From the NCBI GenBank assembly GCA_043819075.1, contig JBDRFE010000014.1, forward strand, positions 1-18,762: DNA of 18,762 nt, in the 5' to 3' direction. A program made the position numbers and the translations under genes. This DNA is from an archaeon. Lineage in GTDB: Archaea > Iainarchaeota > Iainarchaeia > Iainarchaeales > 1-14-0-10-31-34. Positions 4,145-7,870 of this stretch are shown here, one piece after another (the stretch's first letter is position 1; each line of letters starts with the position of its first letter). The notes beneath the pieces were generated by a model. That model was not told the origin of the DNA, did no database searches, and saw only the letters and a program-made list of their open reading frames with translations.

Positions 4145-4954
4145 CTACTTTTTTTCTCCGATTAATGCCGCCCCCACAGCCGAAGCATAACCCGCTTCCT
4201 TCAAAAAAATTGGTTCAGCGAAACTGAATACTTTATTGCATTCGCTGAAAGTTTTCTGGAAGATACTGCTTTCAGCCAGAGAACCAGAAAAAACTATTTT
4301 TTTGTGGCCTAAAGATTTAGCACAGCATAATGCATTTAATGAAATTCCCTGGCACACTAAATTAAATATTCCTGCACTTAAATCCTGTTTTTTTCTGGAA
4401 GAAATTTTCCCGAAATGCGATACACACACATTTCCTTTTAATGCCCCTATTCCTTTTGGATAAACATCTGAAAGCATTAAATCAGTTTTCTTGTAATCGC
4501 CTTTTAATGTATTTGATTCTGCCTGCTTAAAATCTTTTATTCCTGTGATAAGCCAGTTTAATCCGGTAATTGTTTTTCCTCCCAAGGCTGTTCCCCCGCT
4601 GTGGGCTGACTTGTTTTTTTTGACTGAAATCATTGCTGTTCCTGTTCCGGCTGAAACCGCAAGAAATTCTTTTTCTTTTGAAAGAAAAGTGCTTCCTTCT
4701 GCTGTTGCCTGAATTTCGTTCACTAAAACAACTTGAATTCCTTTTCCTTCAATTATTTTTTTTGCTTTTTCAGCATAAGCTCCAGTCAAAGCAATTTTTC
4801 CTGTTTTAAGGAAACCTGTGCCTGAAAGAAAGCCTTTGATTTGTTTTTCAATGCCTTGTTTTTCGTTTAAAAAAATTCTTTTCTTTTTCTCAATCCTTCT
4901 GTCCTCTAACTTTACTGCCTTGAAAGAACTTAAACCAAAATCTATTGCAATCAT
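4145..4954 (-). CDS. coaW: Type II (CoaW/fumble-like) pantothenate kinase
   Basis: IAIDFGLS (ASKHA phosphate-1), VNEIQA, VSAGTGT, GGTALGG, TDLMLSDVY, SHFGK, ASAVGA. Start placed at ATG 4954 (MIAIDFG) because the GTG-extended 5' part lies within a hairpin cluster. Confidence 0.82.
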   Translation of the reverse strand: MIAIDFGLSSFKAVKLEDRRIEKKKRIFLNEKQGIEKQIKGFLSGTGFLKTGKIALTGAYAEKAKKIIEGKGIQVVLVNEIQATAEGSTFLSKEKEFLAVSAGTGTAMISVKKNKSAHSGGTALGGKTITGLNWLITGIKDFKQAESNTLKGDYKKTDLMLSDVYPKGIGALKGNVCVSHFGKISSRKKQDLSAGIFNLVCQGISLNALCCAKSLGHKKIVFSGSLAESSIFQKTFSECNKVFSFAEPIFLKEAGYASAVGAALIGEKK

Positions 4955-4965
4955 AAAACTGTCAC

Positions 4966-5059
4966 TCAGCTGTTCAATCAGCTGGTACTTGTGCACTGCG
5001 TAAAGCAGTGCTAGCGCGAGTTTATCTCGTGCACTGACGCCAGCCGACAGTGGCGGCTG
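4966..5059. repeat. GC-rich multi-hairpin element, copy 2 (four tandem hairpins)
   Basis: CAGCTG-N6-CAGCTG (4967-4984); GCACTGC-GTAAA-GCAGTGC (4993-5011); GCGCGAG-TTTAT-CTCGTGC (5014-5032); CAGCCG-N7-CGGCTG (5041-5059). Confidence 0.72.
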
Positions 5060-5060
5060 A

Positions 5061-5178
5061 TGCAGGAGACAGGATTCGAACCTGCGTAGGCACTAAGCCA
5101 TTGGGTATTTTCAAATAAAAATCAAAAAGACTTATTATTTTCCTAAACCCAACCCGTTTTCCACTCCGGCACACCTGC
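5061..5178 (-). tRNA. tRNA-Leu(TAG) with 35-nt intron at position 37/38 (intron 5107-5141)
   Basis: Acceptor GCAGGTG/CTCCTGC+A (one U-U mismatch); anticodon stem TTGGG/CCCAA with TT-TAG-G|A; long variable arm; T arm GCAGG-TTCGAAT-CCTGT. The AT-rich intron folds as a hairpin with a near-canonical bulge-helix-bulge. Confidence 0.93.
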
Positions 5179-6103
5179 AGAGAAACTCTGATTTTGGTTC
5201 TATTTTAAATTGGAAGCCGTAATACTTTTTATTATATAGTTTGTTAATCCATTCGTCTTTTGACGCTTTAATTCCAAATTCCTGCAGTAATTCAAAGTTC
5301 TGGTCCCTAAACTTTTTTGAGGCACTTGTCAATCCTAACCCTTTTCTTCTTTTTCCTCCATCGGTTTCAAAAACTCCTTTTAAGAAAGCTCTTTTAATTT
5401 CAGGTGAAGATTGGAGAATGCTTTCTGGAACCTTTATTATGTCACATTTTTTTCCCGCTGGAATTTCAAGGAAGTTGTTTAAGAATCTCACTGCGACCCG
5501 GTTTTCACTATTCAATCCAAATAGCTGTTTTATGCTTTGTGGTTTATCTTTAATAAGATAGTTACAGGATTTAATTTCAAAAATATTGTTAAATGCAATC
5601 TCAATTTTTTTAATGAGTTCTCTGTCGCTTAAATTAAAAACTACCCTGCTTTTATTTTTGTCAATATGCCCGTCACACAGTATTGTTGCCGCCAGCCAGG
5701 CAAGTTCTTGTGAAATTTTTTTAGGAATTCTTGCAATGGTGCCTGTTGTACTGCAGAAGTAATCTAAATGTTGGTAAATTTCTTCAACTTCTTTTTCACA
5801 ACCAAACTCGTTCAGTTTAATTATTGTAATCAAAGGAATTGATGCTCTCCCTAATAACCAGTCTTTTGGGCTTGCTTTTTTCACTTTAAATGGTAATTTT
5901 TCAAGCCATTTTTCTTTCCAGTTTAATCCAACTTTTTTTCTAAGTTTGAAATTTATTTGTCTTAAAATTCCTATAATTTTTTCTGCTTTAAAATTCCTTT
6001 CAGTTGGACTTTTGACGTATTTTGGCATTATAGTGTATGCTCTGACACATTTTCTCAGTTCAGTATCTCCAGCACAGTGCAGGTTCAATAGATTAAATTC
6101 CAT
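5135..6103 (-). CDS. Free-standing double-motif LAGLIDADG (DOD-type) homing endonuclease-like protein
   Basis: Motif 1 LAATILCDGHI, spacer IPAGKKCDIIKVPESIL, motif 2 FLKGVFETDGG, then LTSASKKFRD..LLQEFGIK. No Hint splicing motifs. Start ATG 6103 is favoured by TATA spacing; alternatives are 6163 and 6028. Confidence 0.85.
   Translation of the reverse strand: MEFNLLNLHCAGDTELRKCVRAYTIMPKYVKSPTERNFKAEKIIGILRQINFKLRKKVGLNWKEKWLEKLPFKVKKASPKDWLLGRASIPLITIIKLNEFGCEKEVEEIYQHLDYFCSTTGTIARIPKKISQELAWLAATILCDGHIDKNKSRVVFNLSDRELIKKIEIAFNNIFEIKSCNYLIKDKPQSIKQLFGLNSENRVAVRFLNNFLEIPAGKKCDIIKVPESILQSSPEIKRAFLKGVFETDGGKRRKGLGLTSASKKFRDQNFELLQEFGIKASKDEWINKLYNKKYYGFQFKIEPKSEFLCRCAGVENGLGLGK
5202..5209 (-). 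promoter_or_regulatory. Putative TATA box for tRNA-Leu, inside the endonuclease ORF
   Basis: TTTAAAAT lies 31-24 nt upstream of the tRNA 5' end at 5178. Confidence 0.4.
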
Positions 6104-6124
6104 GAAATAATGACTTTTTCTGTT

Positions 6125-6132
6125 TTTATAAA
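6125..6132 (-). promoter_or_regulatory. Putative TATA box of the endonuclease gene (leaderless)
   Basis: TTTATAAA lies 29-22 nt upstream of ATG 6103. Confidence 0.45.
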
Positions 6133-6228
6133 CGCTCTGACAGCGGATTGCCGGTAAAACCACTTATTAATGCTTTTTCTTTTTTTCCCTGTATTCTGTT
6201 TAAAAATTTTTCTTGAAGCAATTCTTGA

Positions 6229-6870
6229 ATGAAGAGAATCATTAATTTTTTTATGCCAAAAGAAGACGTTTTTTTTGATTTGCTGAAAAACCAGGCAAAA
6301 ACTGTTTGTGAAACCGGAACACTGCTTGGAAAATTTGTAAGAAATTTTGATTCATTGAGTTTAAAGGAGCGGAAAAACAGTTTAAGGAAAATAAATGACA
6401 TGGAGCACAAGGCAGATGAATTAACTCATGAAATAGTTGAATTGCTTCATAAAAGTTTTATTACTCCGATTGACAGGGAAGACATTCACGAGTTAGCTGA
6501 CTTATTGGATGACTTGGTTGATTTAATGGATGATATTGCGACAAAAATAATCCAGTATGAAATAAAAGAGATTCCAGAGGACTTGTTTGACTTGTCTGTT
6601 GTTTCATTAAAGTCTTTGAATGAAGTCTTTGAATCTGTTTCCTGCCTTAAAAACCCTAAATCAATTAAAGTTCATTTAAGGAGCATCCATGATTTTGAGG
6701 ACGAAGGAGACAGAATTTATTATAAGGCGATAACTTTTTTATTCAGGAAAGAAAAAAATGCAGTCAAGCTGATTAAGTTAAGGGACATTTACCGTGAACT
6801 GGAAGAATTACTGGATAAATGCCAGAGGGTTGCAATAGTCATTGAAGGCATTGTGGTAAAGCATGCTTGA
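6229..6870 (+). CDS. DUF47 / PhoU-like phosphate transport accessory protein
   Basis: EHKADEL, FITPIDREDI, DDLVD, EDEGD and IVVKHA end. Overlaps the start of the PiT gene. Confidence 0.93.
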   Translation: MKRIINFFMPKEDVFFDLLKNQAKTVCETGTLLGKFVRNFDSLSLKERKNSLRKINDMEHKADELTHEIVELLHKSFITPIDREDIHELADLLDDLVDLMDDIATKIIQYEIKEIPEDLFDLSVVSLKSLNEVFESVSCLKNPKSIKVHLRSIHDFEDEGDRIYYKAITFLFRKEKNAVKLIKLRDIYRELEELLDKCQRVAIVIEGIVVKHA

Positions 6871-7870
6871 TTCTTTTTTTTTGGTTGCAATAGGAGTTTT
6901 TCTTGCACTGGTTTTTGATTTCGGCAATGGATTAAATGATGCTGCAAACGCGATTTCAACTGTTGTTGCAACAAGAGTTTTGTCTTTAAGGTCTGCTGTA
7001 CTGCTTTCAGCTTTCTTTAATTTTGCTGCAGCATTCTTTTTTTCTGTTGCTGTTGCCACTACAATTGGAAAAGGCTTGATTCATCCAGAGGCTGTTACCA
7101 CAGTAATTGTGTTAAGCGGCTTGATTGGCTCAATTTTATGGGTTTATGCTTCTTCTTTTATTGGAATACCTGTTTCTGCTTCGCATGCATTAATTGGCGG
7201 CTTTGTTGGTTCGGCTTTGATTGGCGCAGGATTTAATTCACTGATTCTTTCAGGCATTATTCCGGTTTTTGCTTTTATTTTTGTTGCTCCAATTCTGGGC
7301 GCAATTGGTTCATTCCTTTTTTCTTCTCTTGTTTTAAAGATTGTAAGAAACGCTCCTCCTGGAAAAGTCAACAATTATTTTAAAAAACTGCAGTTAATTT
7401 CTGTTTCAGTTTATTCTTTAGGCCATGGAACAAATGACGCGCAAAAAACAATGGGATTGATTTCAATTTTATTGTTTTCCGGAGGATTTTTAGGCAGTGA
7501 GTTTTTTGTCCCCTGGTGGGTTATAATTGCTTCTTATACAACCATTGCTTTGGGAACAATTGCCGGCGGCTGGAAGGTCGTAAAAACAATGGGAACAAAA
7601 ATAACTAAGTTAAGGCCTGTTAACGGCTTTTGTGCTGAAACATCTGGTGCTGCAGTAATTCTTGGAAGCACTTTTTTTGGCATTCCGGTCAGTACAACCC
7701 ATGTTATTTCCGGCTCTATTATGGGTGTCGGGATATCAAAAAGGCTTTCTGCTGTAAGGTGGCAGATTGCAAGAAATATTGTCTGGGCATGGATTCTCAC
7801 AATTCCGGTCACTGCTTTAATCGGGGCAATGAGTTACTTGATTTTAAATCCTTTAGTTAATGCTCTCTAA
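6863..7870 (+). CDS. pit: PiT family inorganic phosphate transporter
   Basis: GLNDAANAIST, PVSASHALIGG, HGTNDAQKTMG, PVSTTH signatures. Confidence 0.95.
   Translation: MLDSFFLVAIGVFLALVFDFGNGLNDAANAISTVVATRVLSLRSAVLLSAFFNFAAAFFFSVAVATTIGKGLIHPEAVTTVIVLSGLIGSILWVYASSFIGIPVSASHALIGGFVGSALIGAGFNSLILSGIIPVFAFIFVAPILGAIGSFLFSSLVLKIVRNAPPGKVNNYFKKLQLISVSVYSLGHGTNDAQKTMGLISILLFSGGFLGSEFFVPWWVIIASYTTIALGTIAGGWKVVKTMGTKITKLRPVNGFCAETSGAAVILGSTFFGIPVSTTHVISGSIMGVGISKRLSAVRWQIARNIVWAWILTIPVTALIGAMSYLILNPLVNAL

Follow-up and report, generated by a model that had tools for sequence, protein, structure and literature searches.

The 18,762-nucleotide contig JBDRFE010000014.1 (the window; contig C14 of genome G000 in our numbering) belongs to an archaeal genome of 1.24 Mb, 35% GC and 90.6% completeness (GCA_043819075.1, order Iainarchaeales). 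On its minus strand, the gene of a predicted LAGLIDADG homing endonuclease is packed against the 5′ end of an intron-bearing tRNA-Leu(UAG) gene, and the two overlap. Comparison with related loci suggests that they probably constitute a mobile endonuclease-plus-tRNA cassette, which replaces resident tRNA-Leu alleles. A sequence-only reading of the window had proposed a tRNA-targeting selfish unit in which the small intron protects the allele that carries it. By comparison, empty sites in congeners, an enzyme tree discordant with the hosts and decayed copies support the selfish unit well, but the intron turned out not to be required.

The endonuclease gene and its tRNA partner

The open reading frame (ORF) spans positions 5135..6163 and encodes 342 amino acids (aa) when counted, as in the ORF list, from a GTG codon. 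Pfam LAGLIDADG_3 matches it in two stretches with an E-value of 2e-15. The acidic residue pair is kept in 24 of 24 aligned homologs: D164 is found in all of them, and position 268 is D in 21 and E in 3. These results confirm the two intact LAGLIDADG motifs with their Asp residues that had been noticed from the letters alone. The AF2 model of the protein has a predicted local distance difference test score (pLDDT) of 85.3 and a predicted template modelling score of 0.84. From residue 152 onwards, the model shows the element order alpha-beta-beta-alpha-beta-beta-alpha of the two domains that make up the DNA-binding saddle of such enzymes. The best Foldseek matches are archaeal LAGLIDADG enzymes of inteins and introns (E-values from 6.6e-12 to 3e-6, 17-26% identity), headed by the endonuclease domain of the TliVMA intein (6.6e-12); I-Tsp061I, I-DmoI and PI-TkoII were matched as well. 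By its motifs and predicted fold, the protein would thus be a double-motif, monomeric LAGLIDADG homing endonuclease, for which DNA cleavage is predicted. In addition, it has a conserved N-terminal domain of about 130 residues, for which a Pfam search returned zero matches.

Neither an intein nor a group I intron houses this gene, as the sequence-only reading had held, and the Pfam, NCBIfam and Rfam searches agree on this point. An intein-encoded endonuclease was rejected: the ORF stands alone between promoter and tRNA, and the Hint blocks of the intein splicing domain were not found in it by Pfam. In NCBIfam, only endonuclease inserts of intein-bearing proteins match the ORF, all of them far below the cut-off. 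A group I intron was likewise rejected, as the Rfam search of the locus was negative. Hence, the endonuclease belongs to the free-standing class: it lies outside any intron or intein, has a putative promoter of its own and is located upstream of the tRNA, not within the 35-nucleotide (nt) tRNA intron.

The ORF ends where that reading had placed its stop codon, but its start is almost certainly ATG 6103 and not GTG 6163, because homologs begin there, because the TATA-like box of the gene lies downstream of the GTG, and because residues 1-19 are disordered in the AlphaFold model (pLDDT <50). In the alignment, the extension from the GTG is missing from most homologs. At the other end, the final 14 codons consist of the tRNA 5′ exon plus the initial bases of the intron, and the TAA at 5137..5135 corresponds to intron nucleotides 5-7; the overlap reported from the sequence is therefore confirmed to the coordinate. 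The tRNA-encoded tail of the protein (residues 332-342) also has pLDDT <50, and from the model it is probably incidental. In relatives, the ORF stop falls variously in the D-arm, in the anticodon loop, in the intron, or 1-18 nt before the tRNA. The running of the ORF into the tRNA, and its stop in the intron, would be a by-product of tight packing and not a functional fusion. The features of the locus are collected in Table 1.

Table 1 Features of the endonuclease and tRNA-Leu locus in the window
Feature	Positions	Strand	Remarks
tRNA-Leu(UAG) gene with intron	5061..5178	-	Rfam 43.6 bits; model R1 78.8 bits
tRNA 3′ exon, 46 nt	5061..5106	-	T-arm and 3′ acceptor strand identical to G002 and G004
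35-nt intron, canonical position 37/38	5107..5141	-	putative bulge-helix-bulge type; contains the ORF stop codon
tRNA 5′ exon, nt 1-37	5142..5178	-	in frame, ORF residues 329-341
Free-standing double-motif LAGLIDADG endonuclease gene	5135..6103	-	322 aa from ATG 6103; stop TAA 5137..5135
TATA-like box TTTAAAATA	5201..5209	-	31-23 nt upstream of tRNA +1, within ORF codons F-K-I; putative tRNA promoter
LAGLIDADG motif 2 AFLKGVFETDGG	5354..5389	-	residues 259-270; catalytic Asp268 at 5362..5360
LAGLIDADG motif 1 LAWLAATILCDGH	5666..5704	-	residues 154-166; catalytic Asp164 at 5674..5672
In-frame upstream extension from GTG 6163	6104..6163	-	probably untranslated; contains the promoter elements of the endonuclease gene
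TATA-like box TTTATAAAAA	6123..6132	-	putative promoter of the endonuclease gene, 29 nt ahead of ATG 6103; near-leaderless mRNA
9-nt left-end motif TACCGGCAA	6148..6156	-	conserved among cassettes

The Rfam match to the tRNA gene (gathering score 29) has a 38-nt insertion in the anticodon loop; model R1 is our own tRNA-Leu covariance model, made in this analysis. The tRNA is of class II, with a long variable arm, and its anticodon UAG was read from the sequence. The cloverleaf with the intron helix folds with a z-score of -2.8. Among 12 intron-bearing relatives, compensatory changes are found at 24 of the 36 predicted pairs, intron helix included; the outer intron helix of 6 bp (AAAUAA/UUAUUU) covaries among them. 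A U.U mismatch at pair 6:67 of the window tRNA is the only one among 12 relatives. Bulge-helix-bulge geometry was applied as two 3-nt bulges around a 4-bp helix, with flanking helices. Folded by hand, the intron has a central helix of 3 Watson-Crick pairs and one A.G, and two 3-nt bulges that hold the splice sites, so that it would fit the relaxed form of this motif. The splicing endonuclease EndA is encoded in the genome (PF01974, 93.6 bits, G000:C15:6095-6355).

This gene is the sole tRNA-Leu(UAG) found in the genome, where a CAG isoacceptor was not found; therefore, it must work. ARAGORN missed it with default settings, which overlook intron-bearing tRNAs. In intron mode, the program took 5059-5179 for a tRNA-Phe(aaa) whose intron has 33 nt and lies at position 36. 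An automatic annotation would thus overlook the only tRNA-Leu(UAG) of this genome or give it a wrong name.

Linkage, turnover and proposed replacement of tRNA alleles

Loci of the family were drawn from species-representative genomes, from 61 genomes of the same order and from metagenome contigs, 59 in total with the window. Removal of 6 duplicates, 3 intein copies (ORFs of at least 843 aa) and 1 locus without a hit left 49 distinct free-standing loci. In 42 of these, a tRNA gene lies on the same strand at the 3′ end of the ORF, which bears out the idea that homologs consistently abut tRNA 5′ ends. By chance, a same-strand tRNA start is expected within 100 nt of a given ORF end with a probability of about 0.002 in this genome. 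A full-length tRNA-Leu with an R1 score of at least 67 bits is found at 33 loci, its start lying anywhere from -89 to +18 nt relative to the ORF end. The linked tRNA-Leu genes have the anticodons UAG or CAG. Another five loci have a tRNA-Gln(CUG), recognised by ARAGORN in L035, by Rfam in L038 (38.8 bits) and by hand in L037, L039 and L040. At three loci, the start of a tRNA-Leu is visible at the contig end, and one locus (L068) has a weak tRNA match. The window's own genome also encodes a diverged paralog of 252 aa (G000:C59:40273-41031), which overlaps by 15 nt the 5′ end of a tRNA-Leu(GAG) gene at 41017-41102.

Several relatives are arranged in other ways. In the same genome, two further free-standing paralogs follow a tRNA gene: G000:C2:38217-39161 lies 123 nt downstream of tRNA-Leu(UAA), and G000:C60:6390-7436 lies 42 nt downstream of tRNA-Thr(CGU). 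The sister clade abutting tRNA-Gln(CUG), made of L035 and L037-L040 (genomes G055, G033, G050, G005 and G003), is 28-32% identical to the window enzyme. In L037-L040, the D-loop region of the tRNA-Gln gene apparently houses one intron or two, non-canonical in position, and standard tRNA finders miss them. In four metagenome contigs (L057, L066, L068 and L070), the linked tRNA-Leu has non-canonical introns upstream of the anticodon, or two introns. More distant LAGLIDADG ORFs, L020 and L021 (from contigs with Woesearchaeota titles) and L071, run up to or into the 3′ end of a convergent tRNA. This tRNA is intron-bearing in L021; in L071 it is an intron-less tRNA-Leu(UAG) of 88 nt according to ARAGORN. 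Finally, L018, on a contig titled Candidatus Falkowbacteria bacterium (candidate phyla radiation), is a cassette with an archaeal-type, intron-bearing tRNA-Leu, and is probably a mis-binned archaeal contig.

Within the genus, the site itself is preserved: genes of a PhoU-like protein and of a Fumble-type kinase flank it in all six genomes. What lies between them varies. G002, G003 and G005 have only an intron-less tRNA-Leu(UAG) of 84-86 nt, G004 has an endonuclease and an intron-less tRNA, and the window's genome and G001 have an endonuclease and an intron-bearing tRNA. The G001 and G004 endonucleases are 38-39% identical to that of the window, against 59-69% for the flanking proteins. In a maximum-likelihood tree, the window enzyme pairs (support 100/98) with its nearest relative, the enzyme of G018, which is 66% identical and comes from another family of the order. 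G001 and G004 have enzymes that fall inside a clade linked to tRNA-Leu(CAG) (support 100/100), and the tRNA-Gln-linked enzymes form a third clade. In this tree, the labels L008, L014 and L015 were assigned to G018, G035 and G027, respectively, by identical-sequence matches; a guessed genome label of L009 was set aside. The enzyme tree disagrees with host relationships; its groupings imply that this one site has seen at least two invasions and that clades have changed their tRNA partners.

The family is also patchy at a larger scale. Among 32 good genomes with one tRNA-Leu(UAG) gene each, an intact linked enzyme is encoded in 4, mere traces of it are left in 2, and 26 are without it. In G015 the trace is a 32-aa C-terminal remnant; in G039 it is a fragment interrupted by stop codons. 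At two loci, only the last 30 or so endonuclease codons are left directly upstream of tRNA-Leu (L135, upstream of G015:C15 41440-41556; L209, upstream of G029:C4 14412-14496). The survival of these C-terminal codons fits retention of the tRNA-promoter part after gene loss.

Traces of recombination are found in the tRNA as well. Compared with the empty alleles of the genus, the window tRNA differs in the D-arm, the anticodon arm and the variable arm, and is identical in the T-arm and in the 3′ acceptor strand, which leaves it with the U.U mismatch at pair 6:67. The G004 tRNA is a similar mosaic. In addition, at some loci the complete tRNA is followed, after 2-70 nt, by a 3′ fragment of a second, diverged tRNA. 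Such downstream fragments of at least 30 nt occur at 4 of 35 linked and at 0 of 112 unlinked tRNA-Leu loci (p 0.003). Of these four, those of L015 and L041 start at the anticodon loop, and the other two in the variable arm. Mosaics and fragments would both fit a break inside the resident tRNA, followed by a repair from the cassette that ends either in the T-arm or beyond the tRNA. A D-arm type exclusive to the cassette was considered and rejected: it is also present in 7 of 127 tRNA-Leu genes, none of them linked.

These observations point to the following route for the mobile cassette. It would comprise the left-end motif and promoter, the free-standing LAGLIDADG gene, and the complete tRNA-Leu(UAG) packed against its 3′ end. 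The enzyme would cut tRNA-Leu alleles that have no cassette, within the tRNA gene and most likely in the region from the D-arm to the variable arm, possibly in the anticodon loop. Repair from a cassette-bearing copy would then bring in the endonuclease together with the linked, resistant tRNA segment. Resistance could come from the intron, or simply from a differing anticodon-arm sequence. With a right junction in the conserved T-arm, the product would be a mosaic tRNA, as in the window; with a junction beyond the tRNA, the old 3′ part would be left as a relic.

A number of points weigh against this proposal. Seven of the 49 loci break the rule of a same-strand tRNA at the 3′ end: a tRNA-Leu lies 130-190 nt downstream in two, a convergent tRNA stands at the ORF end in three, a divergent tRNA is located upstream in one, and one has no tRNA. 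The mosaic tRNA could be explained by ordinary divergence together with selection on the acceptor stem. When tRNA 3′ fragments of any length are counted, the excess at linked loci is not significant (6 of 35 vs 9 of 112 unlinked, p 0.20). A left-side homology arm for copying the endonuclease into a foreign genome is not evident. Moreover, the evidence for mobility is all comparative and comes from metagenome-assembled genomes, and relatedness among them inflates the counts. Lastly, in groundwater metagenomes from four studies, contigs carry only the cassette-bearing allele of this organism (one contig of 8570 nt covers 4164-7200 with 6 differences), and a clean cassette-free joint was not seen in the contigs of these studies; a search for RNA runs with the sequence was negative. 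One candidate joint, 4889 to 5949, in a single contig and with a side of 21 nt, was rejected as being off the cassette ends and too short-sided.

The main alternative concerns the role of the intron. In strict collaborative homing, as foreseen by the sequence-only reading, the recognition site would span the intron insertion point, the 35-nt intron would confer immunity, and nuclease and intron would spread together. Introns are indeed about four times more frequent in linked tRNAs. They are present at 22 of the 35 linked tRNA-Leu loci and, among the tRNA-Leu UAG and CAG genes of the 32 good genomes, in 5 of 8 linked vs 7 of 45 unlinked genes (Fisher p 0.010, a value that overstates the significance because related genomes are not independent). 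The cassette introns are homologous across host families and have a common covarying helix, in L015 and L041, which have the longest displaced remnants, these begin at the anticodon loop, and the three empty alleles of the genus are all without intron. On the other hand, 13 of the 35 linked tRNAs are intron-less, including that of G004 and whole sub-clades with intact enzymes, and the intron state flips repeatedly inside enzyme clades. An intron homologous to that of the window is also found in the enzyme-free tRNA-Leu(UAG) of G006 and G007, which belong to the same family. In total, five UAG and two CAG genes bear an intron and have no enzyme, in genomes that include G006, G007, G008, G029 and G051. 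Besides, the remnants that begin at the anticodon loop are two cases only. The predicted co-occurrence of nuclease and intron thus exists as an enrichment and not as an obligation, and we consider strict collaborative homing rather unlikely. Within the replacement cassette, the intron may be one of several escapes from cutting available to linked alleles, and may often hitch-hike with the cassette.

A second explanation is that the tRNA is a safe harbour. The enzyme would recognise DNA just upstream of the tRNA, or would be tolerated there for the replacement promoter that it provides, and the tRNA would be neither cut nor co-converted. In the genus, the insertion maps to about 12 nt upstream of tRNA +1, which agrees with this explanation, as do the TATA-like box at the right distance in the 3′ end of the ORF and the 32-aa trace kept upstream of the G015 tRNA-Leu, as expected of a present promoter. 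However, the sequences upstream of empty alleles are not conserved and would therefore hardly serve as targets. From the D-arm through the variable arm, linked tRNAs are unlike the empty alleles, the displaced 3′ fragments imply breaks inside tRNA genes, and the enzyme clades track tRNA identity (Leu-UAG, Leu-CAG and Gln). These observations make a safe harbour unlikely.

It is still less probable that the locus is an inert relic, that is, an old insertion which neither moves nor cuts and whose overlap with the tRNA is the accident of a missing stop codon. The disordered tRNA-encoded tail, and the groundwater contigs in which a cassette-free variant of the population was not seen, are compatible with such a relic. 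Nevertheless, the frame is intact and all conserved residues are kept, dozens of independent loci show this packing with the stop at differing tRNA positions, and the turnover seen in the genus means that the family was active recently. Finally, a domesticated LAGLIDADG protein, acting as a WhiA-like regulator or a maturase-like helper in the expression or processing of the adjacent tRNA, is highly improbable: the conserved tRNA-adjacent position, the conserved DNA motif upstream of its own promoter, the 130-residue N-terminal domain without known family and the presence of WhiA among the fold matches would suit it, but the gene is missing from 26 of the 32 good genomes and likewise from 3 of the 6 genomes of the genus, which have a working tRNA at the site all the same, its tree is incongruent with the hosts, copies have decayed, and the catalytic acids are kept in 24 of 24 homologs. 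WhiA comes 43rd in the fold search, with 12-13% identity. Membership in the WhiA-like group, which had been named earlier as the competing possibility, was rejected, as the acids are not lost and a C-terminal helix-turn-helix domain was not found by Pfam.

Relation to known mobile endonucleases

Free-standing homing endonucleases are an already known kind of element, and it is the tRNA-welded anatomy that is unusual here. SegB is a free-standing endonuclease encoded between tRNA-Arg and tRNA-Ile of phage T4, and targets the tRNA region (PMC2988022). The present locus resembles the intronless homing of T-even phages represented by SegB, for which the same source describes a gene outside any intron or intein, with its own promoter, beside conserved genes and inherited with the flanking DNA (PMC2988022). 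However, SegB is a GIY-YIG enzyme of a phage, whereas the window has a LAGLIDADG gene in a cellular archaeal chromosome. Also unlike SegB, this gene is welded to the 5′ end of a tRNA, with a putative tRNA promoter within the coding sequence, and its family tracks tRNA identities, with whole or partial tRNA genes apparently replaced.

In collaborative homing, the free-standing F-CphI adjoins the psbA group I intron of a cyanophage (PMC2988022 and PMC6083498). Here too, a free-standing endonuclease stands beside a gene whose intron has no endonuclease, and the intron could disrupt the target site, as described for F-CphI in PMC2988022. In contrast to psbA, the intron of the tRNA is a presumed protein-spliced bulge-helix-bulge intron without ribozyme, and it is not present in all linked tRNAs. 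The catalytic core has the same predicted fold, with both motifs, as I-DmoI, I-Tsp061I, PI-TkoII and the TliVMA domain. Unlike these enzymes, which reside inside rRNA introns or inteins, the window enzyme is free-standing, has the extra N-terminal domain and is linked to a tRNA.

In the mitochondrial atp6 gene of the fungus Allomyces, an endonuclease ORF brings a replacement gene end, and the old end is left as a relic. The proposed cassette is similar in that the endonuclease would travel with a substitute part of its target gene, the displaced fragment staying downstream. The Allomyces case concerns the 3′ ends of organellar protein genes, whereas here archaeal tRNA genes are affected and the endonuclease lies upstream. 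In the tRNA-Thr of Caldiarchaeum, an integrase-type element inserts into the tRNA gene and leaves tRNA fragments (PMC3293823). Targets in tRNA, fragments left behind and a link with intron gain are thus shared with that element. It is a separate DNA of 1.8 kb that encodes a recombinase, unlike the window cassette, which consists only of the LAGLIDADG gene of about 1 kb and the tRNA, with no integrase or recombinase.

A full-text search of open-access papers and preprints found no description of tRNA-abutting archaeal LAGLIDADG cassettes. The gain, movement and loss of tRNA introns in archaea, and the frequency of interrupted, split or fragment-duplicated tRNA genes there, are long-standing questions. 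To our knowledge, no mobility machinery is tied to protein-spliced tRNA introns. With the window locus and some 40 relatives, a nuclease family is available whose tRNA partners are defined, together with natural empty, filled, decayed and mosaic alleles. From these alleles, horizontal replacement of essential tRNA genes appears possible in very small genomes. The family also offers new LAGLIDADG scaffolds with predicted natural targets in highly conserved sequences.

A broader reading, which we put forward tentatively and hold to be possible though far from established, is that a radiation of free-standing LAGLIDADG enzymes across DPANN has specialised on tRNA genes. It would combine tRNA-overwriting cassettes, often intron-bearing, cutting in the anticodon arm, immunity by intron or variant stem, and an upstream motif serving as a self-bound operator. 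If so, the family would spread tRNA introns of archaea, and entire tRNA alleles, horizontally at the DNA level, and would also give rise to tRNA gene fragments. Strict collaborative homing, if true, would provide a route for the spread of tRNA introns.

Putative promoters and conserved elements of the proposed cassette

Both genes of the window have a TATA-like box (Table 1). The F-K-I codons that overlie the box of the tRNA are conserved in homologs, and the 3′ end of the endonuclease coding sequence probably doubles as the tRNA promoter. For the endonuclease itself, a similar TATA-like box is found at an equal distance in 20 loci.

Further upstream, the left-end motif has the consensus C-A/T-C/G-C-G-G-C/A-A-A/G, with the TATA-like box about 17 nt later. 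Its position was analysed in the 20 cassettes with a placeable start codon, which come from very different enzyme clades. The motif is located between -53 and -64 of the start codon in 17 of them, and near variants are found at -53 in the other 3. Besides the window, it was noted at L010-L016, L026, L027, L029-L032 and L055-L063. The motif is non-coding, because its DNA is conserved although different reading frames cross it at different loci. Of 123 control regions in front of tRNA-Leu genes, 8 contain it, which we took as chance. It was accordingly rejected as a target element ahead of empty tRNA genes, with only these 8 chance matches there. An inverted copy of the tRNA 5′ end, which would make bracketing inverted repeats, was rejected too, the mean local alignment score over 20 loci being 10.8 vs 10.3 for shuffled sequences. 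As a guess, the motif could be an operator for the endonuclease itself, a promoter element or the end of the cassette. I-TevI is an example of an endonuclease that binds its own operator.

At the left junction in G001 (L026), resident upstream sequence, as in the empty site of G002, is followed immediately by the similar left-end sequence of the cassette. It has the appearance of a short duplication where the cassette was inserted. At the opposite end, a GC-rich stretch with short hairpins (for instance CAGCCG..CGGCTG) lies on the minus strand at 4997-5060, between the tRNA 3′ end and the next gene. Comparable GC-rich hairpin blocks are located behind the tRNA in G003, G004, G005 and L032.

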